A stretch of DNA of 64,000 nucleotides, from the IMG/VR virus record IMGVR_UViG_3300045988_165974, positions 64,001 to 128,000 of that record, one strand, 5' to 3'. The translations under genes were made by a program, and so were the position numbers. The notes under the pieces were generated by a model. That model saw nothing but the letters and a program-made list of their open reading frames with translations. It was not told the DNA's origin and did not search any database. The stretch is from a virus. Each line of letters opens with the position of its first letter. Positions within the stretch are counted from its first letter, which is position 1. Shown piece after piece: positions 1-27,792 of the stretch.

Positions 1-45
1 GTCCGTGTAAAAGGTGATGGCAAATTATAAAGGGGGATAAAAAAG

Positions 46-213
46 ATGAAAAAAAGAATTATAGCAATTTCAGGATTATTAGTAATAGGAATGATGGTAT
101 TTCATAAGCCATTAAGCTTAAAAGCTATGGATATAGTAGACTATTATGGAGAAAAAACTGGTAAAAATGTTGTATCCGTGATAGACTTTTTAAATGAAGT
201 TTATTATCTATAA
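46..213 (+). CDS. small protein (55 aa) with hydrophobic signal/TM-like N-terminus
   Basis: Below the ORF-track cutoff. ATG follows an AGGGGGA RBS. Starts MKKRIIAISGLLVIGMMVF. Open frame ends at TAA 211-213. Confidence 0.45.
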   Translation: MKKRIIAISGLLVIGMMVFHKPLSLKAMDIVDYYGEKTGKNVVSVIDFLNEVYYL

Positions 214-323
214 ATGATGGGACTTTCAAAGTCCCTATATGGTAGTAATTGGTTCGCCTCCACGTGGCACTACTGGAAACAAGTTTACTTGGCTAAGAAC
301 CAAAAAAAGAAGGGATAAAAAAG

Positions 324-644
324 ATGATAAAAAAGATTGAAGAAAAAATTAAAGAATTAGGCTTCGTTGTAGGTTGTTACAATGATAAAATTGATGACAT
401 TTTAACTCCAGGAGCAACACGTAAAGTTTGTGGGTTACTAGAAGAAGAATACACAGACGAATTGATGCGAATTAGAGGTAAACTATATAAAGTCTGTATA
501 GCAACTGTTGACAATGAAAAAGATATCAATATATATCATGCATTAGACTATTACAGACAATACGGAGAAGAACATCTGGATAATGACTATGAAGAAAAAA
601 TGATGACTTTAAAGGAATATAAAGCTTTAAAAATGATGGTATAA
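324..644 (+). CDS. hypothetical small early protein
   Basis: ORF track; GAAGGGA RBS upstream. Confidence 0.6.
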   Translation: MIKKIEEKIKELGFVVGCYNDKIDDILTPGATRKVCGLLEEEYTDELMRIRGKLYKVCIATVDNEKDINIYHALDYYRQYGEEHLDNDYEEKMMTLKEYKALKMMV

Positions 645-721
645 GGCAAAAAATTCGAAACCGTGGGTTTTCCACGGTCTACAAATGATAGGCTAATTGT
701 ACTGACGAGATAGCCTTTGTC
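645..721 (+). ncRNA. type II hammerhead ribozyme HH1
   Basis: Open stem II ggcaaa/tttgtc. Core C-GAAA-C. Stem III cgtggg-tttt-ccacg. GUC cleavage triplet ends at 679. Stem I tacaa/ttgta. Core CUGACGA-G. Loop I aggcta is complementary to tagcct in stem II (pseudoknot). Confidence 0.85.
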
Positions 722-754
722 TTTTGTAAAAATGATGATGAAAAGGGGATAAGA

Positions 755-1042
755 ATGATGAGAGAACATGCAATATATAAAGATTATATCAGATATATAG
801 GAGATGGATTTAATTTTTCAGAATTATATTCATATGAAGACGGTAAAGAATTACATTTCAATAAATTTATGGATTATTGGGAAGACTCTAAAACTGGTAG
901 ATTTTATCGTTGGAAAAATTCAAAAGATAATAAAATTATAAAAGAATGTCATGAAGAAACGCTTGATTATTTTGGATTTAAATCTAGTCGACTAAATGAT
1001 GATAAAGAATCTTTAGAAGATGAAGAATATCTACCATTCTAA
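755..1042 (+). CDS. hypothetical small early protein
   Basis: ORF track; GGGGA RBS; the start could also be the second ATG at 758. Confidence 0.6.
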   Translation: MMREHAIYKDYIRYIGDGFNFSELYSYEDGKELHFNKFMDYWEDSKTGRFYRWKNSKDNKIIKECHEETLDYFGFKSSRLNDDKESLEDEEYLPF

Positions 1043-1046
1043 TGAA

Positions 1047-1124
1047 GGTAATAAATTCGAAACAAGGGATTTTCCCTTGTCTGTAAATGATAGGCTCTTT
1101 ATACTGACGAGATAGCCTATTACC
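1047..1124 (+). ncRNA. type II hammerhead ribozyme HH2
   Basis: Open stem II ggtaat/attacc. C-GAAA-C. Stem III aaggga-tttt-cccttg. GUC ends at 1081. Stem I tgtaa/ttata (one G-U pair). CUGACGA-G. Pseudoknot aggct/agcct. Confidence 0.85.
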
Positions 1125-1153
1125 TTTACAATAGAAATGAAGGGGGATTAAAG

Positions 1154-1408
1154 ATGATGAAAAATTTAGAGTGTGTATATGATAGCAGAAAATCATTTTA
1201 TGGAAAGGCAAAAGTTGAAACTAATTCAAATGAAGGTATAATTACTTTATATAGCTACGGAACAAAAGTAGCTTGTATAAAAGATGGTAAACCAGAACTT
1301 TTATGGAATGGATATTCCCAAACAACTTACAGACATATAGCCGAATTCTTTAAACAAAATGGTTTTATGGAATATAGTTCAAAAGCAGTAATTCAAACTT
1401 TATTGTAA
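1154..1408 (+). CDS. hypothetical protein (84 aa)
   Basis: ORF track; GGGGGA RBS. Confidence 0.6.
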   Translation: MMKNLECVYDSRKSFYGKAKVETNSNEGIITLYSYGTKVACIKDGKPELLWNGYSQTTYRHIAEFFKQNGFMEYSSKAVIQTLL

Positions 1409-1416
1409 TTTTTTAA

Positions 1417-1445
1417 TTGACATTTTTACACAAAAATGATACTAT
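1417..1445 (+). promoter_or_regulatory. sigma-A type promoter
   Basis: TTGACA, 17-nt spacer, TACTAT. Belongs to the repeated promoter family. Confidence 0.6.
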
Positions 1446-1551
1446 TAAATCAAGAGGAGTAATCCCCTGGTTCTTAATGCAGTAGCTAATAGCTAGAGGT
1501 CGCAACTCCTCATAAAACATATGCAGAGCGAGAAAATGAAAGGGGATAAAG

Positions 1552-1998
1552 ATGATGAAAATAAAAGAATTATATGAAAACATTAGTAACTGTTTAGATT
1601 GGATTAAAATCAATAATAGTGATTTAAAAGACATATTTGAAGGTGCTAAGGCATTAAGAAGAGGAATTCAAGTCCTAGAATATGACAAAGAAATGATAGG
1701 CAAAATTGATGATAACTATTTTATTTCAAATTTTATTATGGATATTTTAGAAAAAAATCTTCCAGAGTACCAATTAAGTTTAGACATGATTGATGACATT
1801 TTAGAAGAACTAGATATAGATGATGATACTTTAGAAGAATTAGATGAAAGCGAATTTGAAAATCATGTTATAATCAAAAATACTTTCGTAGATGTAAAAG
1901 AGTCAATTTCTTTTGATGATTACTGGGATGGATTAGACTTTGATAGTCTTTTAAAAAGATTTGAGTTTGCAAAAGAGGAAATTGGTTACTTATTATAA
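1552..1998 (+). CDS. strongly acidic hypothetical protein
   Basis: ORF track; GGGGA RBS; D/E-rich throughout (runs such as LEELDIDDDTLEELDESE). Confidence 0.6.
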   Translation: MMKIKELYENISNCLDWIKINNSDLKDIFEGAKALRRGIQVLEYDKEMIGKIDDNYFISNFIMDILEKNLPEYQLSLDMIDDILEELDIDDDTLEELDESEFENHVIIKNTFVDVKESISFDDYWDGLDFDSLLKRFEFAKEEIGYLL

Positions 1999-2088
1999 GT
2001 TTAAATTCGAAACAGGGAATACAGGAAATCCTGTATTGCTTGTCTATAAGTAACAGGCTGCTTGTACTGATGATGATAGCCTAAGCTT
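1997..2088 (+). ncRNA. type II hammerhead ribozyme HH3 (variant core)
   Basis: Open stem II aagttt/aagctt. C-GAAA-C. Long stem III agggaatacagg-aaat-cctgtattgcttg. GUC ends at 2044. Stem I tataa/ttgta. The core is CUGAUGA followed by an extra U before GAUAGCC. Pseudoknot aggct/agcct. Confidence 0.7.
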
Positions 2089-2115
2089 ATAAATATAACG
2101 ATAAAAGGGGATAAA

Positions 2116-2373
2116 ATGATGAACAATTTAAAATGGCAAAAACTTATAAGTAATTTGGATACAGAAGAAGGTAGACAAGAGTTTATAAAAATTGCTTCTT
2201 CTGGAATGTATTCAGGTGAAAATATTGATGGTGAAAAAGTCATAACCATTGTTTCTCAGGGAGTGGGAATGATAGTAAAAACTAAACATCACGAAAAGCC
2301 AAACTGGTGGGAATGTGTTGATTATGACGAACTTGGCTGCATGGAGTGTGTAACATACGAAAGAGCCGAATAA
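2116..2373 (+). CDS. hypothetical protein (85 aa)
   Basis: ORF track; GGGGA RBS. Confidence 0.6.
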   Translation: MMNNLKWQKLISNLDTEEGRQEFIKIASSGMYSGENIDGEKVITIVSQGVGMIVKTKHHEKPNWWECVDYDELGCMECVTYERAE

Positions 2374-2376
2374 ATT

Positions 2377-2468
2377 GAAGGATAAATTCGAAACAAGTGA
2401 TACGGGTTTTCTGTATTACTTGTCTATAAGGTTAAGCTACTTATACTGACGAGATAGCTTAATCCTTC
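2377..2468 (+). ncRNA. type II hammerhead ribozyme HH4
   Basis: Open stem II gaaggat/atccttc. C-GAAA-C. Stem III aagtgatacgg-gttt-tctgtattacttg. GUC ends at 2424. Stem I tataa/ttata. CUGACGA-G. The pseudoknot covaries (aagcta/tagctt, versus aggcta/tagcct in HH1). Confidence 0.85.
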
Positions 2469-2491
2469 TAAAATGAAAGGGGATAAAAAAG

Positions 2492-3019
2492 ATGATGAAA
2501 AAAGAAAACATTGAAAGATTTTTAAAGTTATTAAATTCAGAAGAAATAAGCGATAAAATAAAAGATATGTATCTTGACTTACTAGAGAGTCATATAGATG
2601 ATGACCTTGGAGTCAAAATAGAAATCATATTAAGCCTAGATGGAGAAGTAGATAACAGATTTTTTACAGGTAATTCAACTAGAATGGACGTATATGAAGG
2701 CAACTCAATTGTTGTGGCAGCCATCAGACATGATGTAAATATTACTGATGAAATGATGGGAGAAATAGTCGATGTATTAAGTAATGATGTATATGAAGAA
2801 TTTGTTCAATATCTTTATGGATTAGACGATATTCCAGAAGAAGAGCAAGAAGAATATCTTGAAGAAAATCTTACTTGGGATAATTTCTATGACTTTGATT
2901 CTATAATATATGGAGAAATTCAGAGAGAAGCTTGGGAAAACAATGTTGACTACTATGGAAATGAAGAAATTGACCAAAAGCTTTATGAATGTATTCAACA
3001 ATTAGAAAATCTTTTATAG
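2492..3019 (+). CDS. strongly acidic hypothetical protein
   Basis: ORF track; GGGGA RBS; D/E-rich with no recognisable catalytic motif. Confidence 0.6.
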   Translation: MMKKENIERFLKLLNSEEISDKIKDMYLDLLESHIDDDLGVKIEIILSLDGEVDNRFFTGNSTRMDVYEGNSIVVAAIRHDVNITDEMMGEIVDVLSNDVYEEFVQYLYGLDDIPEEEQEEYLEENLTWDNFYDFDSIIYGEIQREAWENNVDYYGNEEIDQKLYECIQQLENLL

Positions 3020-3038
3020 GAGCAGCAATGCTCCACTC

Positions 3039-3098
3039 TAAACTCACTTGGCACATGTCAAAAGGTCCAAAGTCCTTGAAAAGAGTGATGGGAGTAAA
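3039..3098 (+). ncRNA. conserved three-way-junction RNA element, copy A (class unknown)
   Basis: UAA, then P1 ACUC/GAGU, P2 UUGGC-ACAU-GUCAA, and P3 AAGG/CCUU with loop UCCAAAGU. 3' tail GAUGGGAGUAAA. Same architecture as copy B, with compensatory changes in all three helices. Confidence 0.6.
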
Positions 3099-3156
3099 GG
3101 CGAAGTTACCAAAATGCTCGTCTAAATATAATGGTAACAATAAAAAGGGGGTAAAT

Positions 3157-3471
3157 ATGAAGGTATATTTAGGAAATGCATTTAGTTTGCAAATGATAAG
3201 TACAACAAAGGATACAGACATAAGAGTTTCACCAGTTGATGTTCAAACTGTAAAAGATAGTGATTTTATATCAATTGTAGGTCATCAAGATACTGCATCT
3301 GTAGTTGGAAACATCTTAGGAAAAGATGTACCTTGCAATCGAGTTTCTGTTAGTTTGAGTAAAGGAGATATTTTATATGTAGCACAAATTGTTGGTGGCA
3401 GACTTCCTGTGGGAGCTACTTGTTTACCAAACGGCTTTAAATTAACATTCTTGAAAGTAACTATCTTGTAA
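3157..3471 (+). CDS. DUF1874-like (STIV B116-like) protein
   Basis: Internal ATG with a GGGGG RBS, chosen over the track start at 2989, which would read through the RNA element. Pattern GH-x2-TA...LG...NR...GD...RLP matches my recollection of the DUF1874 family. Confidence 0.6.
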   Translation: MKVYLGNAFSLQMISTTKDTDIRVSPVDVQTVKDSDFISIVGHQDTASVVGNILGKDVPCNRVSVSLSKGDILYVAQIVGGRLPVGATCLPNGFKLTFLKVTIL

Positions 3472-3537
3472 ATAATATGAGGTTTGGGAGTCCTTTTAAA
3501 ACTCCCCCTAAATATGAAAATGAAGGGAGAAATAAAA

Positions 3538-3675
3538 ATGGAAGAAAAAAGAGAAATGACAATAGAAGAAGAATTTGAAAAACATATGAAGACTATGGAA
3601 GGACATGTATGCTACGGTTGTAGTGGTTGTAAATTTGCTTTCTATGGAGTTTGTCCATATGCTTTAGAGGGGTAA
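3538..3675 (+). CDS. small Cys-rich protein (CYGCSGC...C)
   Basis: ATG with a GAAGGGAG RBS, in frame within track ORF 3484..3675. Confidence 0.5.
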   Translation: MEEKREMTIEEEFEKHMKTMEGHVCYGCSGCKFAFYGVCPYALEG

Positions 3676-3689
3676 AACCTCTCTTGCTT

Positions 3690-3747
3690 TAAACTAGCCA
3701 CCAGAAGGTGAGAGTCCAAAGCCTCTGTGAATAGTGATGGGAGTAAA
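3690..3747 (+). ncRNA. conserved three-way-junction RNA element, copy B
   Basis: UAA, then P1 ACUA/UAGU, P2 CACC-AGAA-GGUG, and P3 AGAG/CUCU with loop UCCAAAGC. 3' tail GAUGGGAGUAAA. Junction lengths are identical to copy A. Confidence 0.6.
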
Positions 3748-3766
3748 TAAAAGGGGGTAAACGATA

Positions 3767-3967
3767 ATGATGAAGAATGAAAATAATTTTGAAAGGATAA
3801 TATGTGATAGCTTATGGGACATAAAACAGAATTATCCAAATATTGAATTGTCTAAACATCTATTCTATATAGACACCTTTGAAAGATTAGGATATGGCAA
3901 AAAAGGAATAGAAATAACTTTAAATAACAATGATAAGTATATTATTACTAAAGTTGAAAATGATTAA
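3767..3967 (+). CDS. hypothetical protein (66 aa)
   Basis: ORF track; GGGGG RBS. Confidence 0.55.
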   Translation: MMKNENNFERIICDSLWDIKQNYPNIELSKHLFYIDTFERLGYGKKGIEITLNNNDKYIITKVEND

Positions 3968-3968
3968 T

Positions 3969-4063
3969 ATAGTCTAAATTCGAAACAGAGGAAAGAATGA
4001 AGGTTCTTTTCTTTGTCTATAATAAGATAGGCTCTTTATACTGATGATGATAGCCTAGACTAT
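3969..4063 (+). ncRNA. type II hammerhead ribozyme HH5 (variant core)
   Basis: Open stem II atagtct/agactat. C-GAAA-C. Stem III agaggaaagaa-tgaagg-ttcttttctttg. GUC ends at 4017. Stem I tataa/ttata. CUGAUGA plus an extra U, as in HH3. Pseudoknot aggct/agcct. Confidence 0.7.
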
Positions 4064-4205
4064 TATAAAAGGTTAGATAAAATGCTATCAAGAACTCATG
4101 AAAGTGAGTGTTGAATATATTATCATTTTTTGGGAGAGGGTTGCCCTCTCCTATCCCCAATATAGTAGATAAATGATAGTGATATCATTAAATATATATT
4201 ATGTA

Positions 4206-4235
4206 ATCTCTCCAATTGAGAGGTTATTTTTTTTT
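4206..4235 (+). terminator. rho-independent terminator ending the ribozyme-containing operon
   Basis: Stem atctctc/gagaggt with loop caatt, followed by a T9 run. Confidence 0.7.
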
Positions 4236-4256
4236 ACTTAAATTTATAAAAAGTAC

Positions 4257-4285
4257 TTGCAAGTCTTACACAAAAATGCTACAAT
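4257..4285 (+). promoter_or_regulatory. sigma-A type promoter
   Basis: TTGCAA, 17-nt spacer, TACAAT. The spacer resembles that of the promoter at 1417. Confidence 0.55.
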
Positions 4286-4307
4286 TAAATCAAAGGTGGT
4301 GAAGAAT

Positions 4308-4631
4308 ATGAAATACAATTCAATGGAAATACATGACAGAACTTGGAACTTATTTAATCCAAATAAAAAATATAAATGGAGTGACATTTACAAAAATGAA
4401 GAAGAAATGATAGCAGATTTACATTATGTTGAATCAGATGCTTATGAAAAGGTACTTAATCCATCTGCTCCAATTTATGTTGGTTATCAATATATTCACT
4501 CTTTTGCAAAACAAGTAAAAGAAGGTAAAGAATTAAGTAAAAAACAAATAACTCAATGTAAAAGATTAGCAAAAGAAATTAAAAAGGCTAGAGTATTTGG
4601 AGAATATATAAGAGAAATAAAAGAACAATAA
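4308..4631 (+). CDS. hypothetical protein
   Basis: ATG with a GGTGGTGA RBS, in frame within track ORF 4257..4631. Confidence 0.6.
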   Translation: MKYNSMEIHDRTWNLFNPNKKYKWSDIYKNEEEMIADLHYVESDAYEKVLNPSAPIYVGYQYIHSFAKQVKEGKELSKKQITQCKRLAKEIKKARVFGEYIREIKEQ

Positions 4632-4667
4632 CAGAGCCCTCATTAGGGGGTTCTTAGGAGGTATAAT

Positions 4668-4958
4668 ATGAACAATATTTCTTTAGTGCAGCTTAGAAAA
4701 GATTATGATTATCTAAATAGCAAAATTTCTTATCATGTGTTAAATGAAGACGAATTATTAAATGAAGTTGTTCCTAAAATGTTGAGTGGGAAAATGGATT
4801 TAAAAAACTTTATTCTGTGGGCAATAAAAGATACGATAAAATATGTAGTAGAAGACAGAGAGGCAATGAACACAAAAGAAGACATTGAATTTATTGAATC
4901 AGATAAAAGATTTAAAAGGATTCTTGACAGATACGATATTGATATAGAGGAGGTTTAA
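4668..4958 (+). CDS. hypothetical protein, paralog of the next gene
   Basis: ORF track; GGAGG RBS. Shares the L-W-I-D-I...V...F...D-R-KRI pattern with 4960..5280. Confidence 0.6.
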   Translation: MNNISLVQLRKDYDYLNSKISYHVLNEDELLNEVVPKMLSGKMDLKNFILWAIKDTIKYVVEDREAMNTKEDIEFIESDKRFKRILDRYDIDIEEV

Positions 4959-4959
4959 T

Positions 4960-5280
4960 ATGAATATAGAGCAACAATTAAAAGGATTAGAAATAAAACA
5001 ATCTACAACTACTCTAAGAGCAGATTTTGAATATTTAGATGATAATATCAATTGGTATCTAATTGATGAAGCAATATTAGTAACAGAAATTGCTCCAGGA
5101 TTGCAATATGGAACATTAAATCTAAAACAATTTTTGCTTTGGAGCATCTGGGACATTATTGCTTTTGTTATTATAGAAAATCATGACGAAGATGATGTTA
5201 ATTTTGTTAAAACAGACAGTAGGGTTAAAAGAATCATAAGAAAATATGGTTTAAAAGAAAGCATAGAAGAATTAATATAG
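4960..5280 (+). CDS. hypothetical protein, paralog of the previous gene
   Basis: ORF track; GGAGG RBS; tandem paralog. Confidence 0.6.
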   Translation: MNIEQQLKGLEIKQSTTTLRADFEYLDDNINWYLIDEAILVTEIAPGLQYGTLNLKQFLLWSIWDIIAFVIIENHDEDDVNFVKTDSRVKRIIRKYGLKESIEELI

Positions 5281-5291
5281 GAGGAGTAGAT

Positions 5292-5579
5292 ATGAAATAT
5301 AGAATATGGTGGATACCGCAAGTAGGATATGAAGGTACTTTTTATGTACCTGTAAATTCTCCAGAAGAAGGATTAAAAATGATGTCAGTTTTAGGAGCAT
5401 ATGATTTATTTCAATTAAAGAATAATATTAAACCAGACTTTTCAAATACAGGTGGCTTAGAAGTCTTTGAAAACGGAGAATGGGTAGATTACTATGACGA
5501 AGACGGCAGAGATATAGATGAACATTTTGAAGAAGATGTGGATATGCAAGACTTTATAGAAAAAGTTTATAATTTTTAA
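5292..5579 (+). CDS. hypothetical protein
   Basis: ORF track; GGAGGAG RBS. Confidence 0.6.
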   Translation: MKYRIWWIPQVGYEGTFYVPVNSPEEGLKMMSVLGAYDLFQLKNNIKPDFSNTGGLEVFENGEWVDYYDEDGRDIDEHFEEDVDMQDFIEKVYNF

Positions 5580-5613
5580 AAGGAATAATTACAAAAGGGG
5601 TGGGGGTAAGACT

Positions 5614-6453
5614 ATGAAACAATTAGAGGATTTAACAGGAATGAAGTTTGGACTATTAACTGTAATAGAACTCGACCATAGAGAAAATGGTCACTCATAT
5701 TATAAATGCAAATGTGAGTGTGGCAATGAATGTATTATATATTCATATAGCCTTAAAAATGGGAATACAAGAAGTTGTGGCTGTTTAAGAAAAAAGGAAT
5801 CAGAAGATTTAACTGGTAAAAAATTTGGTATGCTTACAGCTATAGAAAAGGTTAAATCTAATGATGATAGTCATAAAAGCTATTGGAAGTGGCAATGTGA
5901 GTGTGGTAATCAAAAAATTATAAGAGCTGACTCAGTTAAAAGTGGTTACGTAAAGAGCTGTGGTTGTTTAAATAAAAAAAATCAACTTGATATTCCAGAA
6001 GGTAGTAGATACGGGAAACTTACAGTTATTAAAAAAGTAGGACAAAATAAACAAAATTATATTATGTATAAATGCAAATGTGATTGTGGTAATACAGTAA
6101 TTGTTAAAGGTTCTAGTTTATGTAGGGGAGCAACTCAATCTTGTGGATGTATAGCTACAGAACGTATTAAAAAGATGCAGCCTATTGCAAAAGACGTCGG
6201 AAGATATGCTGGAACTAAAATTGGTATTATTAGTAATAATAAACTGAATAGGAACAACACTAGCGGAACAAAAGGTGTTTACTACATTAAACAACGTGAT
6301 AAATGGAGAGCCGCTATAGGGTTTAGGGGTAAAACTATACATTTAGGAGAGTTTAAAAACAAAGAAGATGCTATTGAAGCTAGAAAAAAAGCAGAATTAA
6401 AATATTTCAAGCCAATAATAGAAGAATATAACGAGATTAAAGGAAATAATTAA
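5614..6453 (+). CDS. AP2-domain DNA-binding protein with three N-terminal Cys4 repeats
   Basis: Three repeats of LTG-KFG-LT-I...C-CECGN...SCGCL. The C-terminal SGTKGVYY..RDKWRAAIGFRGKTIHLGEF...EDAIEARKKAE is AP2-like. Confidence 0.75.
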   Translation: MKQLEDLTGMKFGLLTVIELDHRENGHSYYKCKCECGNECIIYSYSLKNGNTRSCGCLRKKESEDLTGKKFGMLTAIEKVKSNDDSHKSYWKWQCECGNQKIIRADSVKSGYVKSCGCLNKKNQLDIPEGSRYGKLTVIKKVGQNKQNYIMYKCKCDCGNTVIVKGSSLCRGATQSCGCIATERIKKMQPIAKDVGRYAGTKIGIISNNKLNRNNTSGTKGVYYIKQRDKWRAAIGFRGKTIHLGEFKNKEDAIEARKKAELKYFKPIIEEYNEIKGNN

Positions 6454-6487
6454 TATTCCAAAATAAAAAATAAAATATATAAGGGAT

Positions 6488-6520
6488 AGAGCAGCTTAAT
6501 TGCTGCTTTATTTTTTTTTA
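6488..6520 (+). terminator. rho-independent terminator
   Basis: Stem agagcagc/gctgcttt followed by a T-run. Confidence 0.7.
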
Positions 6521-6539
6521 TAAAAATTCCATATAATAG

Positions 6540-6568
6540 TTGACATACTTACATAAAAGTATTAATAT
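6540..6568 (+). promoter_or_regulatory. sigma-A type promoter
   Basis: TTGACA, 17-nt spacer, TAATAT. Confidence 0.6.
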
Positions 6569-6622
6569 ATAAATATAGTTAGTTTTACACAAAAACAAAA
6601 TTTCTAAAAGGGGGATGGAGAT

Positions 6623-7357
6623 ATGTTTACACTAGGCAACAGTAAAATTAAAACGGCACTAAGAAATATATCACAAAGGAAGTATGATTGTGATGTGTTT
6701 AAAATGGAAGTAAATAGTATATCAGAAATATGTAAAAAAGAATTTCAAGCAGAATATAGTAAGATGGAAAAATTCTCTTTCAACAAAGGATATCTTGAAT
6801 TTACATTTAAAGACCAAGCAGTAATTGGCTATTTTGAAATACAAGGATTTAATATAAGTTTAATTATTGCTCCCACAAATAATGTTTATGGCAGTAGTTT
6901 TATCTTTAATGCAAATATAAAAGATATGCAAGGAGAAGTTGGATATGTAAAGAATTCTTTATTAATATTAGTGGAAGAAGATGAATCTTTGCATAAGAAA
7001 ATTAGTGCAATTGGAAAGACATTATGCGAAGGAATCTTAGTTGCAAATTATTTAGCTCAAACAAATCCAACAATAATAAAAGACAATGAAACTAGGATTG
7101 TTAAAAAGTCAAATAAAAAGAGAAAACATAAAAATAAAACTATCAGGAAAATAAACCTTACTAATATAAGACATGTAAAAGAATACAGTAATACTAATAT
7201 AAATACAGATAAAAGAAATTACGAAAGACATACTGAATCTTGGACTGTAAGAGGGCATTACAGACATTATAAAAGTGGTAAGGTAGTTTGGATAGAACCA
7301 TCTACTAGAGGGACTGGAAAACCTCAAGGAAAAGTTTACAATATAAATGTTGAATAA
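6623..7357 (+). CDS. hypothetical protein with basic C-terminal region
   Basis: ORF track; GGGGGA RBS. Confidence 0.55.
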   Translation: MFTLGNSKIKTALRNISQRKYDCDVFKMEVNSISEICKKEFQAEYSKMEKFSFNKGYLEFTFKDQAVIGYFEIQGFNISLIIAPTNNVYGSSFIFNANIKDMQGEVGYVKNSLLILVEEDESLHKKISAIGKTLCEGILVANYLAQTNPTIIKDNETRIVKKSNKKRKHKNKTIRKINLTNIRHVKEYSNTNINTDKRNYERHTESWTVRGHYRHYKSGKVVWIEPSTRGTGKPQGKVYNINVE

Positions 7358-7370
7358 GGGGGACTAAAAC

Positions 7371-7745
7371 ATGGTAGAAGTAAATAAATTATACAGATGC
7401 AGACAAGATATAGTTTTAAATCCAAGTACAGTTGATAAAATCAATATATCATTAGACTTAGATATGGGAAATACAGTTATGGCAACTATTGATGATGTTG
7501 GGATATATAAACCTATAACAATTTCAGAATTTAATTTAGCAAAAGAAATACTTAAGAAAAAAGCAGAGCAGCTAATTATAGAGAATAAAGAAGTGGACCA
7601 TGTAATATACTCTATAGTAGAAACTGACTATGAAGGTTATTGTAATCGAATAATTATATGTCTTATTCCTCTTACTCATGAAGAATATGTTAGAAGAATG
7701 AGACTTTTAAACGACACAACAAAGTGTTTTGTATTAAATAGATAA
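7371..7745 (+). CDS. hypothetical protein
   Basis: ORF track; GGGGGA RBS. Confidence 0.55.
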   Translation: MVEVNKLYRCRQDIVLNPSTVDKINISLDLDMGNTVMATIDDVGIYKPITISEFNLAKEILKKKAEQLIIENKEVDHVIYSIVETDYEGYCNRIIICLIPLTHEEYVRRMRLLNDTTKCFVLNR

Positions 7746-7759
7746 TAGGAGGGTTTTAT

Positions 7760-8707
7760 ATGAGTAATTGTTATAAAGAGTTTTTAGGATATATGAAAGA
7801 TGTGCAAGGAGTTGATAATAAAACTCTAGTATGTTACGAAAAAAATTTAAAAGACTTTAACGAGTATATTTTTGGTGGGAAAGCAGATACTACTTTTGAA
7901 GAAATAGCAAACTTAAAAGTATCTGAAATACAAACAAAATGGCTCAATAGACTTAAAGATGAAAAAGGATATAAATCAAATACCTTAAACAACCGCATAA
8001 TTACACTTACAAGACTTTACACATATATGGTAGGAGAAAACTATACTACTGTAAATAAAGGCAAACTAATACCTCATTACAAAGGCGACAAGAAAGTTAA
8101 AAAAGAAATATCAACTGATGATTATATATCTTTATTAGAAGAACTTAGAAAAAATAGAGATAAAAACTTCACTAGTCTTAGAAATTGGTTTATGGTAGAA
8201 TTCTTTTTAGCAACTGGACTTCGTAGAGCGGAAATCATAGCATTAGACATCGAAGATGTAAATATTCTTACTGGTGAAATAAAAGTCACTAGAAAATATG
8301 ACGAAGGTGTTAAATTTGGTAAAGAAAGAATAGAGTATCTTCCAGAAATACTTTTAGATGATTTACACTATTATCTTTCACATAGATTAGACATAGAAAC
8401 AGATAGTGATGCTTTCTTTATTTCTACTCATAAAAAAAGAATGTGCGCATCTAATATCAATAAGCTGCTTAATAAGATAGCAGATAATAACGGCATGAAA
8501 ATACACCCTCATATGCTTAGAGCGGGATTTTCAAGCAATACCATTAATAGTGGTAGGGTAGAATCATATGAAGTCGCAGAAGCGATGGGACACAGTAATA
8601 AGACTACTACTTTGAACTATTATCATAAGTCTAATACAGAAGTATTAAAGAAAGTTGCCAACAGTAATATGATATTTGACAAAAGACAAGATGATAATGT
8701 AATATAA
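7760..8707 (+). CDS. tyrosine recombinase/integrase (XerC/D-like)
   Basis: ATGLRRAE (Arg box), HPHMLRAGF (HxxR) and GHSNKTTTLNYYH (Tyr box). Confidence 0.85.
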   Translation: MSNCYKEFLGYMKDVQGVDNKTLVCYEKNLKDFNEYIFGGKADTTFEEIANLKVSEIQTKWLNRLKDEKGYKSNTLNNRIITLTRLYTYMVGENYTTVNKGKLIPHYKGDKKVKKEISTDDYISLLEELRKNRDKNFTSLRNWFMVEFFLATGLRRAEIIALDIEDVNILTGEIKVTRKYDEGVKFGKERIEYLPEILLDDLHYYLSHRLDIETDSDAFFISTHKKRMCASNINKLLNKIADNNGMKIHPHMLRAGFSSNTINSGRVESYEVAEAMGHSNKTTTLNYYHKSNTEVLKKVANSNMIFDKRQDDNVI

Positions 8708-8740
8708 AAATAGTATAAATAAAATATAGAGGTGATTAAT

Positions 8741-9430
8741 ATGATGAAAAACAAAAACTCAATTGGGTTCTATATAGAAAGTTTAGGATTCGATTTAGAT
8801 AAAGTTTGGGATTTTGAAAAGAATACAAAAAATCCTGATGAAGTTACAAAAATGTCAAATGTTGAAATATGGTTAAAATGTGTTAATCATGATTATCACG
8901 GCAGCTATAAAACAACTGCTAAGGCTTACTATTATTCCTCTTCTACAGAGGGATATGGTTGCCCTTACTGTTCTAAAATAAGTCCAAATAGAAAGGTCCA
9001 TATACTTGATAGTTTTGCATATAAACATCAAGATTGGGCAAAATGGTGGGATAGTTCTAATAAGAAAACTCCTTTTGAATGCAAAGGAAATGAACAACAT
9101 GAGACATTTAAATTTACTTGTCCTGTTTGTGGCTACAGTTTTGAAAGTACATTAATGTTCCTTTCTGATTTAAAATTTAAACATGTATGTGAATCAGATA
9201 AAACAAGAGGTAAGGGGTATGATGAATATCAAGATTACAGAAAACAACAACAGTTTGAAAGAGCAGCAAAGCACATAAAGAAATCTGGTAAAGGAGAATG
9301 GGAACTTATAGAATTCAATGGAACAAACAGACCTGGTACTGTTAAGCATCATTGTGGAGCAACTAAGACAGTTACTAGAATATCTTCTTTATATAATAAA
9401 AATATAGTTTGTCCTAATTGTGATAAATAG
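8741..9430 (+). CDS. multi zinc-ribbon protein (treble-clef type)
   Basis: ATG with a GAGGTGA RBS (the track start at 8732 is GTG). GCPYCS, CPVCGY and CPNCDK motifs. Confidence 0.6.
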   Translation: MMKNKNSIGFYIESLGFDLDKVWDFEKNTKNPDEVTKMSNVEIWLKCVNHDYHGSYKTTAKAYYYSSSTEGYGCPYCSKISPNRKVHILDSFAYKHQDWAKWWDSSNKKTPFECKGNEQHETFKFTCPVCGYSFESTLMFLSDLKFKHVCESDKTRGKGYDEYQDYRKQQQFERAAKHIKKSGKGEWELIEFNGTNRPGTVKHHCGATKTVTRISSLYNKNIVCPNCDK

Positions 9431-13733: not shown

Positions 13734-14903
13734 TTGCTAAAGAGTTACAAAACGGAAATAAACCCAACACAGGAACAAATACAAAAGATAAATAAAACAA
13801 TTGGAACTTGTAGATTTATTTATAATTTTTACATCGCTCATAATAAAGAACTCTATAACAAGGGCGAAAAATTTATGACGGCAAAATCATTCAGTGTTTG
13901 GTTAAATAATGAATTTCTACCAAATAATCCGAATTATTCATGGATAAAAGAAGTAAGTTCTAAATCAGTTAAAAAATCTATGGAAAATGCTTATACTGCT
14001 TTTAATAAGTTTTTTAAGAAACAAAGTAAGTTTCCTAGATTTAAGAAAAAGAATAAATCTGATGTAAAAATGTACTTTGTAAAAAATAATCCAAAAGATT
14101 GTTTCTGTGAAAGACATAGAATTAATATTCCTACTCTTGGATGGATTAAATTAAAAGAAAAGGGATATATTCCTACTACTAAAGACGGATATGTAATTAA
14201 AAGTGGTACGGTTTCTTGCAAAGCTGGAAGATATTATGTATCAGTTTTAATTGATACTTCTGATACAGAAAAACCACAATTAAATGACTTTGGATTAGGA
14301 ATTGATTTAGGTGTTAAAGAATTTGCGGTAATTAGTAATGGAACTATAAAGAAAAATATAAATAAAACTGCTAAATTAAAAAAAATAGAAAAACAATTAA
14401 AAAGAGAACAGCGTTGCCTATCGAGAAAATACGAAGGATTAAAGAAACGCAACAATAAAATGAAAGGAGAAGCCACTAGGCAAAATATTAAAAAACAAGT
14501 CTTAAAGGTACAGAAACTTCATCAAAGAATGGATAATATTCGTACTGATTATATCAATAAATGTGTAAATGAGATAGTGAAAACCAAGCCATCTTATATT
14601 ACCATTGAAGATTTGAATGTAAAAGGAATGATGAAGAATAAACATCTCTCTAAGGCAGTTGCTTCACAGAAATTCTATGAATTTAGAACTAAACTTGAAA
14701 CAAAATGCAAAGAATTAGGAATTGAATTAAGAATTGTAAATAGGTGGTATCCATCGAGTAAATTGTGTCATGAATGTGGTTGTATCAATAAAGATTTAAA
14801 ACTTTCTGACAGAGAATATATTTGTGGATGTGGATACCATGCTGATAGAGATTATAATGCAAGTCTTAATTTGAGAGATGCAATATCCTACAAAATAGCA
14901 TAA
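13734..14903 (+). CDS. tnpB: TnpB (RuvC-like RNA-guided nuclease family)
   Basis: RuvC triad contexts GIDLGVKEF, ITIEDLNVKGM and HADRDYNASLNL. Zn finger CHECGC...CGCG. AGGAGG RBS with a TTG start. Confidence 0.85.
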   Translation: MLKSYKTEINPTQEQIQKINKTIGTCRFIYNFYIAHNKELYNKGEKFMTAKSFSVWLNNEFLPNNPNYSWIKEVSSKSVKKSMENAYTAFNKFFKKQSKFPRFKKKNKSDVKMYFVKNNPKDCFCERHRINIPTLGWIKLKEKGYIPTTKDGYVIKSGTVSCKAGRYYVSVLIDTSDTEKPQLNDFGLGIDLGVKEFAVISNGTIKKNINKTAKLKKIEKQLKREQRCLSRKYEGLKKRNNKMKGEATRQNIKKQVLKVQKLHQRMDNIRTDYINKCVNEIVKTKPSYITIEDLNVKGMMKNKHLSKAVASQKFYEFRTKLETKCKELGIELRIVNRWYPSSKLCHECGCINKDLKLSDREYICGCGYHADRDYNASLNLRDAISYKIA

Positions 14904-14904
14904 A

Positions 14905-15094
14905 CAAGCATTTGTAGGTATGTACCGATGGCTTTAGTCGGGAATTTACGACTGTGGACTGTACAAGAACTTGTGAGTAGTGTATTACTTTGTAATCACA
15001 AAAGCATACAGGATGAAACAGTAAGAAAAGTTTGTGAAAACTTTCAATATCTCGATATGGGTATATTTGTCCATATTTTGAGTGGCAGGAAGAC
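14905..15094 (+). ncRNA. putative omega-RNA (reRNA) scaffold of the solo TnpB
   Basis: Lies directly 3' of tnpB. About 100 nt (ATGTACCGATGGC...CACAAAAGCAT) are highly similar to the orphan copy at 35185. The 5' boundary probably lies inside tnpB, so both ends are approximate. Confidence 0.5.
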
Positions 15095-25911: not shown

Positions 25912-26538
25912 ATGAAATATTACTCAATAGGAGAATTTGCGAACCAAATAGGCAAGACGGTTCAAACACTTAGAAATTGGGATAATAAAGGAACTTTAAA
26001 ACCGCATCATGTAACAGTAGGCGGAACAAGGTATTATTCTCAAGAACAACTTAATCATTTCTTAGGACTTAAAAATATGGAATCTAAAAATAAAAAAATT
26101 ATTGGTTATTGCAGAGTTAGTTCTTATAAACAAAAAGACGACCTTGAAAGGCAAATTGAAAATGTAAAAACATATATGTATGCAAAAGGTTATCAATTCG
26201 AGATTATTTCTGATATTGGAAGTGGAATAAACTATAATAAAAAAGGATTAAATCAATTAATAGATATGATTACTAATTCAGAAATAGATAAGATAGTAGT
26301 CCTTCATAAAGATAGATTAATTAGATTTGGATATGAATTAATAAAAAATCTTTGTGATAAGTATGGGACTACTATTGAAATTATAGATAATACCGAGAGG
26401 ACAGAAGAACAAGAATTAGTTGAAGATTTAATTCAGATAATCACTGTATTTAGCTGTAGACTTCAAGGTAAAAGAGCTAATAAAGCTAAGAAAATGATTA
26501 AGGAGTTGATAGAAGATGATACTTGCAAAGAAAGTTAG
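25912..26538 (+). CDS. tnpA: IS607-type TnpA (MerR-like HTH plus serine recombinase)
   Basis: HTH YSIGEFANQIGKTVQTLRNWDNKG. Catalytic region IIGYCRVSSYKQKDDLERQ. Confidence 0.85.
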   Translation: MKYYSIGEFANQIGKTVQTLRNWDNKGTLKPHHVTVGGTRYYSQEQLNHFLGLKNMESKNKKIIGYCRVSSYKQKDDLERQIENVKTYMYAKGYQFEIISDIGSGINYNKKGLNQLIDMITNSEIDKIVVLHKDRLIRFGYELIKNLCDKYGTTIEIIDNTERTEEQELVEDLIQIITVFSCRLQGKRANKAKKMIKELIEDDTCKES

Positions 26539-27631
26539 ATTGTGCCCAAGTGAACTACAAGAAGAAAAAATATGGCAATCAGTAGGGACTGCAAGATTTA
26601 TTTATAATTGGACTTTAAATAGGCAAGATGAAAATTATAAAGGTGGTGGTAAATTCATACCTGATAGTGTTCTTAGAAAAGAAATAACTCAATTAAAGAA
26701 AACTGACTTAAGTTGGTTAAATGAAGTATCTAATAATGTTGCAAAACAAGCTGTAAAAGATGCCTGTGATTCATATAAAAGATTCTTTAAAGGATTGTCA
26801 GGTAAACCTAGATTTAAAAGTAGAAAAAGAAGTAAGAAGTCTTTTTATCATGACAATGTTAAACTTAAAGTCAAGGATAATAAATTAGTTAAGATTGAAA
26901 AGATAGGTTGGATTAAAACTAATGAGCAACTATCTATTGGAGCTAAATATAGCAATCCAAGAATAAGTTATGATAACAAATATTGGTATTTATCAGTAGG
27001 TATAGAACAGGAAGAAATCCAAGAAGAATTAACAGATGCATCATTAGGAATAGATTTAGGATTGAAAAACTTAGCAATCTGTTCTGATGGCACAGTATAT
27101 AAAAATATAAATAAAACTTGTACAGTCAAAAAAATCGAAAAGAAACTAAAAAGATTACAAAGACAAATAAGTAGAAAGTATGAAAAAAATAAAAAAGGAA
27201 AGGAGTATGTCAAAACTAAAAATATTATAAAACTTGAAAAGCAGATACAACAGACACATAGAAGATTAGCTAATATTAGAAATAACTATCTTCATCAAAC
27301 TACTACAAGTATAGTGAAAACCAAACCATACAGAGTTGTAATAGAAGATTTAGCAGTTTCTGATATGATGAAAAATAAACATTTATCTGATGCTATAAGA
27401 AAACAAGGATTCTATGAATTTAGAAGACAACTTGAATACAAGTGCAATTTTAGAGGAATTAAGTTAGTCGTAGCAGATAGATTTTATCCATCGTCAAAAA
27501 TTTGTAGCCAATGTGGAGAGATTAAGAAGGATTTAAAGATATCCGATAGAGTATACAAGTGTAATTGTGGGCTTGTGATTGATAGAGATTTAAATGCAAG
27601 TATTAATCTTTCTAAATATAAATTAGCATAA
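26516..27631 (+). CDS. tnpB: TnpB (IS607-associated)
   Basis: RuvC triad contexts GIDLGLKNL, VVIEDLAVSDM and VIDRDLNASINL. Zn finger CSQCG...CNCG. Confidence 0.85.
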   Translation: MILAKKVRLCPSELQEEKIWQSVGTARFIYNWTLNRQDENYKGGGKFIPDSVLRKEITQLKKTDLSWLNEVSNNVAKQAVKDACDSYKRFFKGLSGKPRFKSRKRSKKSFYHDNVKLKVKDNKLVKIEKIGWIKTNEQLSIGAKYSNPRISYDNKYWYLSVGIEQEEIQEELTDASLGIDLGLKNLAICSDGTVYKNINKTCTVKKIEKKLKRLQRQISRKYEKNKKGKEYVKTKNIIKLEKQIQQTHRRLANIRNNYLHQTTTSIVKTKPYRVVIEDLAVSDMMKNKHLSDAIRKQGFYEFRRQLEYKCNFRGIKLVVADRFYPSSKICSQCGEIKKDLKISDRVYKCNCGLVIDRDLNASINLSKYKLA

Positions 27632-27792
27632 TATCATTAATAAGATAATGCTAATATGTAGGATGCGTTGTATCCAAATTTACGCCCTTGGAGAGTTATA
27701 TCAAACGAAAGTAGGTTGTTATTTATAATTTCCAAAATCGAATTCGTAGAACAGGGAATTAAACAAGATTTATAGATATTTATAGATTTTTG
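27632..27792 (+). ncRNA. putative omega-RNA region of the IS607 TnpB
   Basis: Non-coding tail 3' of tnpB. It begins with TGTAGGATGCG...AAATTTACGCCCTTGGAGA, which parallels GTAGGTATGTACC...GAATTTACGACTGTGGA of the other TnpB. Confidence 0.4.

Follow-up and report, generated by a model that had tools for sequence, protein, structure and literature searches.

Twister ribozymes of type P1 were reportedly introduced by Roth et al. in 2014, and structures are said to exist for the O. sativa and env22 twisters. In the corresponding Rfam family, twister-P1 (RF03160), the parts follow one another in the order P1, UAA, P2, L2, P3, P4/L4, P2', L1 and P1', with cleavage between a U and an A that is followed by a second A, a G that opens the 3' strand of L1, and an L4 loop that contributes a closing G-C pair, a U...A pair and an A.A partner. 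Two pseudoknots, T1 with three Watson-Crick pairs and T2 with two, complete the fold, and the P0 and P3 stems are optional. T1 connects L4 to the 3' strand of L1 and is accompanied by an A.A pair (PMC5408937), and the conserved L1 guanine acts as the general base (PMC11662667). In an assay of more than 2,600 natural twisters, 94% were active, and P1 was reported to be dispensable (PMC11662667). Bacterial twisters are found near other ribozymes and phage genes, and their biological role, like that of phage twisters, is described as not yet proven (PMC6765202).

Two other described RNAs invite comparison. Twister-sister (RF02681) vaguely resembles the elements studied here in its stem and internal-loop layout, the A conserved on the 3' side of its cleavage site and its genomic neighborhood, but it is without pseudoknots and is cleaved on the opposite strand (PMC5408937). 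The DUF1874 RNA motif (Weinberg et al. 2017) is a multistem candidate with a highly conserved internal loop that occurs upstream of DUF1874 genes and also in consecutive intergenic regions, and it is suspected to be an attC-like recombination site (PMC5737381).

Here, we analyzed a window of 64 kb of viral DNA (the whole stretch, 64,000 nucleotides), carrying two structured elements, A and B, each placed between small genes in the early operon of a phage. The initial annotation had described them as three-way-junction RNAs of a second, unassigned class that it had matched to no consensus. Our analysis shows instead that they belong to an already known RNA class. Judging from their sequence and structure, the complementarity of their pseudoknots and the covariation seen in relatives, A and B are very probably type P1 twister self-cleaving ribozymes bearing the optional P0 and P3 stems. 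They share with RF03160 the order of parts, the cleavage site, the L1 and L4 features, both pseudoknots, the optional stems and the location beside other ribozymes and phage genes.

Results

Assignment to the twister-P1 family

In a 2-kb scan, element A (3035-3095) and element B (3686-3744) gave full-length matches to RF03160 of 45.4 bits (E=2.4e-8) and 44.8 bits (E=3.7e-8), respectively, with both alignments spanning the whole model (1-68 of 68). Over the entire window the E-values were 7.8e-7 (A) and 1.2e-6 (B). Twister-P1 was the sole Rfam family matching A or B at E<=10, and the hammerhead, pistol, hatchet, twister-sister and HDV-like models gave no match at 3019-3098 or 3666-3747 at that level. 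In another viral locus, two twister-sister copies lie beside a twister.

Rfam at its gathering threshold reported nothing at A or B (only three RAGATH-18 hits), and this silence, with the three-way-junction layout and the invariant loop and tail, could point to a new, undescribed ribozyme or structured RNA class. However, below the threshold twister-P1 aligns over the full length of each copy at E about 1e-8, and each conserved position has a named counterpart in the twister, down to the two pseudoknots and the catalytic A and G, with none left over. A new class is thus highly improbable. The curated RF03160 gathering cut-off is 67.2 bits; A and B fall below it and are assigned here from the sub-threshold scan. 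This cut-off is an annotation threshold and no structural feature. Given that every phage twister tested scored below it (17 twister-P1 hits in 18 viral loci, 35.9-57.6 bits, 17/17 under 67.2), it appears to exclude the whole phage group rather than to flag A and B as false. Our own model, R1, scored A at 66.8 bits and B at 67.6 bits.

Relative to the twister-P1 consensus, both copies have CCA:UGG in place of CCC:GGG in T1, an A/U-rich P2 and a short P3, and copy A has AC:GU in place of GC:GC in T2. Together these differences place A and B 22 bits under the cut-off. They are ordinary covariations, as 11 T1 versions occur in relatives. What marks the two elements is their combined layout and not short strings, since GTCCAAAG and GATGGGAGTAAA by themselves showed no enrichment within the window.

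Architecture of the two predicted ribozymes

The coordinates of both ribozymes and of the surrounding operon are collected in Table 1. The helices, loops and tail listed in the initial annotation are all present where it had placed them, but the twister fold gives them other names: its P1 is twister P2, its tetraloop hairpin is the optional P3, and its P3 with the 8-nt loop is P4/L4. Its invariant tail is really the L1 3' strand (GAUGG) followed by the 3' strand of P1 (GAGU). The true P1, in which the four bases 5' of UAA (ACUC 3035-3038 in A, GCUU 3686-3689 in B) pair with this GAGU, was missed because its 3' strand had been taken for tail. The conserved loop and the "tail" together make up the pseudoknots T1 and T2 as well as the active site. 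The elements themselves stand, with slightly different limits, the functional units being 3019-3095 and 3666-3744. The small hairpin overlapping the upstream stop codon before each copy, with a GCAA tetraloop at 3019-3034, had also been seen, and corresponds to the optional P0 stem (PMC5408937, PMC11662667). In A, P0 starts on the G that ends the TAG stop codon (3017-3019).

Table 1. Positions of the predicted twister ribozymes, their parts and the flanking operon features in the window
Feature	Position	Strand	Remarks
Probable 3' part of a fourth twister at the window edge, GUCCGUGUAAAAGGUGAUGGCAAA	1..24	+	R1 positions 38-61, 15.2 bits, E=0.11; weak alone
Promoter-like site (TTGACA, 17 nt, TACTAT, with TG)	1417..1445	+	consensus scan only
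Predicted third twister, same transcription unit, 5' leader after promoter-like site	1471..1534	+	RF03160 36.4 bits, E=1.1e-5; R1 41.6 bits
Gene upstream of ribozyme A, 175 aa	2492..3019	+	no Pfam match; stop codon touches P0
Predicted twister ribozyme A, type P1, with optional P0	3019..3095	+	RF03160, R1, MFE fold
A, P0 hairpin GGAGCA-GCAA-UGCUCC	3019-3034	+	no linker to P1
A, P1 ACUC/GAGU	3035-3038 with 3092-3095	+	4 bp
A, UAAACU	starts at U3039	+	read from sequence
A, predicted cleavage site U3039 / A3040	3039..3040	+	aligned to UAA of twister-P1 consensus
A, P2 ACUC/GAGU	3042-3045 with 3083-3086	+	
A, T2 pseudoknot AC (L2)/GU	3046-3047 with 3072-3073	+	A3046-U3073, C3047-G3072
A, P3 hairpin UUGGC-ACAU-GUCAA	3048-3061	+	one G.U pair
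A, P4 AAGG/CCUU	3062-3065 with 3074-3077	+	
A, L4 loop UCCAAAGU	3066-3073	+	
A, T1 pseudoknot CCA/UGG	3067-3069 with 3089-3091	+	C3067-G3091, C3068-G3090, A3069-U3089
A, junction GAAAA	3078-3082	+	
A, 12-nt stretch GAUGGGAGUAAA	3087-3098	+	
A, L1 3' strand GAUGG	3087-3091	+	
Gene downstream of ribozyme A, DUF1874 / STIV B116-like	3157..3471	+	PF08960 E=5.7e-10
Gene upstream of ribozyme B, 45 aa, Cys-rich	3538..3675	+	stop codon within P0 loop
Predicted twister ribozyme B, type P1, with optional P0	3666..3744	+	RF03160, R1
B, P0 hairpin	3666-3682	+	TAA stop codon 3673-3675 in loop; 3-nt linker to P1
B, P1 GCUU/GAGU	3686-3689 with 3741-3744	+	4 bp including two G.U pairs
B, UAAACU	starts at U3690	+	read from sequence
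B, predicted cleavage site U3690 / A3691	3690..3691	+	aligned to twister-P1 consensus
B, P2 ACUA/UAGU	3693-3696 with 3732-3735	+	
B, T2 pseudoknot GC/GC	3697-3698 with 3721-3722	+	G3697-C3722, C3698-G3721
B, P3 hairpin CACC-AGAA-GGUG	3699-3710	+	
B, P4 AGAG/CUCU	3711-3714 with 3723-3726	+	
B, L4 loop UCCAAAGC	3715-3722	+	
B, T1 pseudoknot CCA/UGG	3716-3718 with 3738-3740	+	
B, junction GUGAA	3727-3731	+	
B, 12-nt stretch GAUGGGAGUAAA, as in A	3736-3747	+	
B, L1 3' strand	3736-3740	+	
Gene downstream of ribozyme B, 66 aa	3767..3967	+	cassette missing from closest relatives
Terminator-like hairpin and T run	4203..4237	+	consensus scan only

The nucleotides named as essential in the literature are all present in both copies: the U|A-A at the cleavage site, the L1 G, the A.A partner, the U...A pair and the L4-closing G-C (PMC5408937, PMC11662667). 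By analogy with the roles given in those studies, A3040 would be the general acid and G3087 the general base in A, where further core contacts are A3070.A3088, U3066.A3071 and G3065-C3074. In B, A3692 follows A3691, the predicted general base is G3736, and the L4 core contains G3714-C3723 and U3715/A3720. T1 and T2 are absent from both the Rfam model and R1, yet they are fully complementary in A and B; T1 is the same in the two copies, and T2 has undergone a compensatory change (AC:GU in A, GC:GC in B). The minimum free energy fold of 3019-3098 contains P0 and all nested helices (P1, P2, P3, P4; z = -2.96), and that of 3664-3747 yields P0, P1 and P2 (z = -2.08).

The two copies have in common the identical 12-nt stretch and the identical UAAACU, which would be expected if one leader had recently been duplicated locally, leaving a structure without selection. 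Against this, P2, P3, P4 and T2 differ between them by paired changes, as the initial annotation had recognized when it regarded the helices as covarying and the elements as functional structured RNAs. In addition, the corresponding positions of the syntenic locus L001 hold other combinations (A without P3, and B resembling copy A of the window), and the same positions are invariant in about 100 distinct sequences of unrelated viral contigs. A recent duplication is therefore extremely improbable.

Covariation among viral relatives

Further covarying homologues exist, with R1 giving 166 hits in viral loci. As a specificity control, R1 was run over 821 kb of mostly chance-matched viral contigs and found only 4 sites, all already known to be genuine; these contigs were the loci of a first loose DNA pattern (120 viral loci, nearly all chance, of which 3 passed the pairing filter). 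Approximately 100 distinct twisters in viral contigs share the CCA:UGG T1. In the 26 twisters outside the DNA search pattern, T1 is fully Watson-Crick in 25, with 11 different triplets, and the lone exception is an alignment shift. We dropped the idea that CCA:UGG is a special T1 variant, given the 11 versions among these unselected relatives.

In alignment A2 (99 distinct sequences), 97.9% of cells pair, compared with 65% after shuffling and 32-43% with slid partners, and alignment A3 gives 98.1%; these figures are biased towards the structure, because many sequences had been filtered on P2, P4 and T2 and the alignments had been fitted to the model. Changes on both sides occur in 19 of the 21 pairs of A2. 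P1, which lay outside the search pattern and the filter, pairs at 4/4 positions in most of 98 unique sequences. Over the 99 relatives, P1, P2 and P4 are paired in 94-100% of cells and T2 in 99.5%; 76 distinct sequences have G-C as the first T2 pair (columns 12-62) and 22 have A-U. The L4-closing G-C pair is kept in 99/99 sequences and the UAA in all relatives, and a P0-like hairpin occurs in 91 of 144 unique viral contexts.

It is also conceivable that A and B are twister-derived folds that do not cleave, but serve as structured leaders, as stabilizers of 3' or 5' ends or as translation regulators for the flanking genes. Their scores under the Rfam cut-off, the lowering of the cleaved fraction by P0 in vitro (PMC11662667) and the placement of B, whose fold stops 6 nt 5' of the Shine-Dalgarno site of the 66-aa gene, would fit such a reading. 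However, a non-catalytic RNA would put no constraint on the general-acid A, the second A, the general base (G) or the partners in the A.A and U.A pairs, yet all of these are intact in both copies and invariant in 26/26 unselected relatives while the helices vary. We consider loss of cleavage very unlikely.

Operon context and syntenic relatives

Besides three complete predicted twisters and a probable truncated one, the operon contains five hammerhead-like elements and an HDV-like hit, all within 4.2 kb. Nearly all of the small early genes are flanked by such a ribozyme element, including a putative anti-CRISPR ring nuclease gene, and this context fits that reported for bacterial twisters. The product of the latter gene (3157..3471) matches PDB entries 2x4i, 2j6b, 6scf and 2j85 (E 2e-9 to 2e-5); DUF1874 is described as AcrIII-1, a viral ring nuclease family (bioRxiv 10.1101/778746, 10.1101/2023.01.10.523387). 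The third twister pairs CGC 1501-1503 with GCG 1528-1530 in T1, and its syntenic copy in L001 (324-387) has changed P1 from UUCU/AGAA to UUCC/GGAA.

Three syntenic loci (L001, L025 and L135) have twisters at the same two intergenic positions as A and B, with compensatory changes in P2 (ACUC/GAGU to ACCU/AGGU), P4 (AAG/CUU to AUG/CAU) and T2 (GC:GC to AC:GU). The 45-aa Cys-rich gene is conserved in L001 at 3381-3518. A megablast search of window positions 1-9000 against GenBank phages gave no match, and in tblastn the relatives of a PHP-domain pol III alpha fragment (Geobacillus virus E3, Bacillus phage pW2, Clostridium phage c-st) all stayed below 46% identity. When genome contigs were scanned with DUF1874 proteins, the best match, in Saccharibacteria MAGs, was 59% identical, and no close relative emerged.

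Given that copy A lies upstream of the DUF1874 gene, the initial annotation had raised the possibility that it belongs to the DUF1874 RNA motif. The published occurrence of that motif in consecutive intergenic regions (PMC5737381) resembles the arrangement seen here, and the cassette-swap breakpoints between relatives fall in ribozyme-bearing spacers. Nevertheless, only twister-P1 matches the copies in Rfam at E<=10 (the motif itself was compared by description), no such family was matched in 20 other viral DUF1874 loci, and every conserved position is already accounted for by the twister fold. We therefore give this membership very little credence.

Between ribozyme A and the DUF1874 gene lies a further 43-nt element (3097-3139) made up of AAGGCGAAG, a 6-bp stem and a loop with invariant CUCGUCUA. 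Compensatory changes affect 4 of its 6 stem pairs, as seen in six sequences only, and it matches no Rfam family. The minimum free energy fold of the 3096-3160 leader has z about 0, and the support comes from covariation alone. Tentatively, the element could represent a cis-regulatory RNA of a kind not described before and confined to phage DUF1874 genes, perhaps folded as an H-type pseudoknot, although we regard this as doubtful. A looser idea of the same doubtful standing is that the ribozyme spacers double as cassette-swap junctions, given that homology to L025 and L135 ends at 3766 and restarts at 4027.

Discussion

From the perspective of phage gene expression, A and B would likely act by self-cleavage within the polycistronic early phage mRNA that contains them. 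In this scenario, both elements would be transcribed within one such mRNA, probably from the promoter-like site to the terminator-like hairpin (Table 1). Each twister RNA would fold with its P1, P2 and P4 helices stacked, and T1 and T2 would pull L4 onto the internal loop L1. The 2'-OH of U3039 (U3690 in B) could then attack the next phosphate, with the roles of general base and general acid falling to G3087 (G3736) and A3040 (A3691), respectively. The upstream product would carry a 2',3'-cyclic phosphate end directly 3' of the P0 hairpin. The downstream product would begin with a 5'-OH and retain nearly the entire compact ribozyme as a 5' leader before the Shine-Dalgarno site. Neighboring cistrons would thereby be uncoupled, and a structured end on each mRNA piece may set its own stability and translation. 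We infer both the transcript limits and this physiological role.

Self-cleavage of A and B is predicted from their class and intact catalytic positions and from the 94% activity among natural candidates (PMC11662667); neither copy has the changes that lowered cleavage in that assay. A ribozyme was the right kind of object to suspect, and twister was among the candidates initially listed. Cleavage could be partial, because twisters that bear P0 cleave less completely in vitro: the mean cleaved fraction was 0.40 with P0, 0.67 with P0 and P3, and 0.85 without auxiliary stems (PMC11662667).

The "second RNA class" of this operon is the twister, a class one would expect to meet next to hammerhead-like elements in phage DNA. 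Given that the 67.2-bit cut-off missed 17/17 phage hits and the three complete copies in this window, default annotation may record too few phage twisters, so that those missed resemble structured RNAs of no known class. We suggest that this operon is a compact natural test bed for what self-cleaving ribozymes do in phage mRNAs.

Two predicted twister ribozymes

The initial annotation described two look-alike RNA elements within 3019-3766, and its layout was borne out exactly when both copies were read from the sequence. Each runs, 5' to 3', through UAAACU, a 4-bp helix, a 2-nt junction (AC or GC), a tetraloop hairpin, a 4-bp helix closing UCCAAAG(U/C), the 5-nt junction GNNAA and then GAUGGGAGUAAA. 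The small hairpin said to precede each copy is also present. At 3019-3034 it is GGAGCA-GCAA-UGCUCC, whose first base is the last base of a TAG stop codon, and at 3666-3682 a TAA stop codon lies inside the loop. When 3019-3098 is folded by MFE, the hairpin appears together with every nested helix (z = -2.96). Short strings of the layout on their own are not enriched within the window, and thus the signal is the combined layout.

An Rfam scan of the window at gathering thresholds returned three RAGATH-18 elements elsewhere and nothing else. In a sub-threshold scan of 2300-4300, RF03160 (type-P1 twister) aligned full-length to both elements, for which the initial annotation had named no matching consensus, and no further family came close to twister-P1 at either copy. 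Scanned over the whole window, the two elements have E=7.8e-7 and 1.2e-6. The helix initially called P1 corresponds to twister P2, the tetraloop hairpin to the optional P3, the former P3 with its 8-nt loop to P4 and L4, GNNAA to the 3' strand of L2, and UAA to the predicted cleavage site. The conserved tail becomes GAUGG, the 3' strand of L1, and GAGU, the 3' strand of P1, which pairs with ACUC 3035-3038 in copy A and with GCUU 3686-3689 in copy B. The upstream hairpin corresponds to the optional P0 stem, which lies directly 5' of the twister's 5' end, with an optional linker, in ~10% of twisters (PMC11662667; PMC5408937). The suggestion of a ribozyme therefore stands, given the twister match, while that of a separate RNA class does not, as all parts map onto the twister fold. 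By sequence and structure, A and B are a pair of ordinary predicted twister ribozymes of a known class.

Covariance models are blind to pseudoknots, so T1 and T2 serve as independent tests, and both copies pass them. In twisters, T1 joins L4 to L1 by three Watson-Crick pairs and an A.A pair, T2 joins L2 to two bulged bases of L4 by two pairs, and P4 is lengthened by an invariant G-C together with a U.A pair (PMC5408937). T1 of A is formed by C3067-G3091, C3068-G3090 and A3069-U3089, with A3070 facing A3088; in B, 3716-3718 pair with 3738-3740. T2 (A3046-U3073 and C3047-G3072 in A, G3697-C3722 and C3698-G3721 in B) shows a compensatory difference between the copies. The predicted general-acid A (A3040, A3691), the A that follows it and the predicted general-base G (G3087, G3736) are all present, these being the roles of A and G in twister catalysis (PMC11662667). 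T1 is CCA:UGG in both copies, whereas the Rfam twister-P1 consensus is CCC:GGG; the double change keeps the pairing, and the Rfam model counts the penalty twice.

Twister-P1 matches in 18 viral loci (L148, L158, L152, L170, L186 and others) fall under the 67.2-bit gathering cut-off in 17/17 cases, at 35.9-57.6 bits. A score below the cut-off is thus typical of this phage twister group and no evidence against A or B, and default Rfam annotation would overlook the whole group.

The DUF1874 RNA motif is a multistem RNA with a conserved internal loop that occurs in consecutive intergenic regions and is suspected to be attC-like (PMC5737381). Twister-P1 is the sole Rfam family matched by A and B at E<=10, which were compared with the DUF1874 motif by its published description only, and an Rfam scan matched nothing resembling it beside 20 other viral DUF1874 genes. 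The predicted twister fold accounts for A and B entirely, with nothing left unexplained.

Features in the window (own model, covariance model built in this study)
Feature	Position	Strand	Match or remark
Twister A	3035-3095; 3019-3095 with P0		RF03160, 45.4 bits, E=2.4e-8 (2300-4300); own model 66.8 bits
Twister B	3686-3744; 3666-3744 with P0		RF03160, 44.8 bits, E=3.7e-8 (2300-4300); own model 67.6 bits
Third complete twister	1471-1534	+	RF03160, 36.4 bits; own model 41.6 bits
Probable twister 3' third	1-24	+	GUCCGUGUAAAAGGUGAUGGCAAA, cut by window edge; own model 15.2 bits, E=0.11
HDV-like match	242-305	+	RF02682 full-length, 37.7 bits vs cut-off 44; E=8.5e-5 (2.5-kb scan)
Hammerhead-like, 5' of unit	~645-721, 1047-1124	+	intergenic; core strings
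Hammerhead-like, inside unit	~1996-2089, 2377-2468, 3969-4063	+	intergenic; core strings
Conserved leader element	3097-3139	+	between twister A and DUF1874 start; covariation
DUF1874 / STIV B116-like gene	3157-3471	+	GH motif VGHQDT
RAGATH-18 RNAs	14951-15024, 27685-27758, 35215-35288	+	over Rfam cut-off
Promoter-like site	1417-1445
Terminator-like site	4203-4237

Relatives and covariation

Relatives were sought in viral contigs with DNA patterns modelled on L4 and L1 as they read in the window, followed by a pairing filter, which recovered 98 distinct sequences. P1, which lies outside both pattern and filter, pairs 4/4 in most of them. A covariance model built from 22 of the 98 gave 124 and 42 matches in the pattern-fetched loci. 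Run on 821 kb of control contigs, mostly matched by chance, the same model found the four genuine sites and nothing more.

Among 99 distinct sequences, 97.9% of cells pair, both pseudoknots included (65% in shuffles, 32-43% with slid partners; 98.1% in a second alignment), and changes on both sides occur in 19/21 pairs. These counts are biased towards structure: the filter had selected for P2, P4 and T2, the search pattern fixed T1 and T2 in most rows, and the sequences were aligned by fitting them to the model. A clean test of T1 comes from 26 by-catch twisters without that pattern. T1 is fully Watson-Crick in 25/26, with 11 different triplets (including CAC:GUG, CUC:GAG, CUA:UAG, CCG:CGG, UCA:UGA, CCU:AGG, UCC:GGA, CGC:GCG, CCC:GGG and CUG:CAG), and UAA, the A.A partners and G are unchanged across all 26. 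This diversity rules out CCA:UGG as a special variant and makes it one ordinary version of T1. Up to seven twisters, each with a different T1 triplet, occur in 6 kb of a single viral contig; arrays lie at L209 4584-10552, L132 3909-6307, L129 1-1401 and L155 6912-9902.

Two viral contigs (L001/L025 and L002/L135), whose DUF1874 protein is 77% identical to that of the window, are syntenic with it and carry twisters in the same two spacers. At position A, P3 is missing, ACUC/GAGU of P2 is replaced by ACCU/AGGU, and AAG/CUU of P4 by AUG/CAU; at position B there are paired substitutions in P2, P4 and T2, and P3 is swapped for another. Such paired changes indicate selection on the fold. They contradict recent duplication of one leader, in agreement with the earlier view that the helices covary and that this is no mere duplicated leader.

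L025 and L135 are the closest relatives (~77% identity over 2113-3766). Homology ends at 3766, exactly ahead of the ATG of the 66-aa gene, and restarts at 4027, within the next hammerhead-like element; in the relatives, two different small genes take the place of the 3766-4027 cassette. Near 2100, the relatives also have additional cassettes 3' of the hammerhead-like element. Identity rises to 97-99% from 4663 onward. The breakpoints fall in ribozyme-bearing spacers, which points to exchange of gene cassettes there.

Other structured elements

The third twister lies in a 5' leader, after the promoter-like site and before gene 1552-1998, and has a syntenic copy at L001 324-387. Its T1 is CGC:GCG, and its T2 (AG 1481-1482 / CU 1506-1507) forms only with L2 one base earlier, P2 then having 3 bp. 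The probable twister fragment at the window edge is followed by a Shine-Dalgarno site and gene 46-213, and a hairpin (219-235) right behind the stop codon of that gene precedes the HDV-like match. An element resembling the latter by eye lies at ~L001 1470-1530.

The five hammerhead-like elements have type-II order: closing stem, AAAUUC-GAA-AC, hairpin, GUC, hairpin, CUGAYGA, (G)AUAGCYU, closing stem. Covariation is seen in these closing stems, and the loop of stem I seems to pair with AUAGCC. The elements went unmatched by the Rfam hammerhead models and by every other family at E<=5 to 10. Between the last of them and the terminator-like site, non-coding sequence at ~4070-4200 (+) is conserved to 83% in both L025 and L135, with a GAGAGGGUUGCCCUCUC hairpin and then C-rich UAUCCCC; Rfam gave only weak, chance-level matches here (RsaE and SAM-II, 17 bits each).

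The leader element upstream of the DUF1874 gene is built of AAGGCGAAG, a stem of 6 bp (GUUACC/GGUAAC) and a loop carrying invariant CUCGUCUA. The same type precedes DUF1874 genes in viral contigs L269, L271, L272, L274 and L276. Across six sequences, 100% of stem cells pair and 4/6 pairs are changed on both sides, in four versions (the others being GCUACU/AGUAGC, GUUGAC/GUCAAC and GCUGUC/GGCAGC). AGGCGA/UCGUCU of the invariant flanks could pair to form a pseudoknot. The element matched no Rfam family, and its MFE folding is unremarkable. A second, different element, AAGGC-CA-AUGGCGCG-A-GCCUU-ACCAAAUC-CGCGCCAU, lies ~50-100 nt 5' of the DUF1874 start in L281, L285, L286, L289, L290, L291 and L293. 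Its crossed-stem layout is akin to that of the leader element, and its two crossed stems would give an H-type pseudoknot; it varies little, with wobble changes only.

RAGATH-18 RNAs at 14951-15024 and 27685-27758 lie right after TnpB-type genes (13734-14903 and 26516-27631) with OrfB_IS605 and Cas12f1-like TNB domains. This agrees with the guide role for IS607 TnpB nucleases reported for RAGATH-18-derived RNAs (PMC11061315).

Genomic context and possible role

The window belongs to a large phage-like genome with pol III alpha pieces, a DnaB-like helicase, ribonucleotide reductase, integrase and TnpB genes, and has no close relative among the GenBank phages and reference genomes searched. The promoter-like and terminator-like sites bracket a unit of six small genes with the third twister, three hammerhead-like elements and twisters A and B; 5' of it lie the HDV-like match, two hammerhead-like elements and the probable truncated twister. 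The DUF1874 gene follows twister A, and its protein is related to PDB 6scf and 2x4i. AcrIII-1, a ring-nuclease anti-CRISPR, belongs to the DUF1874 family (bioRxiv 10.1101/778746 and 10.1101/2023.01.10.523387), and the gene suggests that this ribozyme-rich operon carries anti-defence genes.

In viral loci, twisters are mostly co-oriented with flanking ORFs (ORF cover 61% on the same strand vs 30% on the opposite), and a P0-like hairpin precedes 91/144 unique twister sites. We suspect, as the best-supported mechanism, that a polycistronic early mRNA would cleave itself at the twisters, a role that has been proposed in the literature and is still unproven (PMC6765202). The upstream piece would end 3' in P0 and a cyclic phosphate, and the downstream piece would carry, just 5' of the Shine-Dalgarno site, a ribozyme fold in which its 5'-OH is buried. 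Given that mean in vitro cleavage of twisters with P0 and P3 is 0.67 (PMC11662667), cleavage of A and B may be partial or timed.
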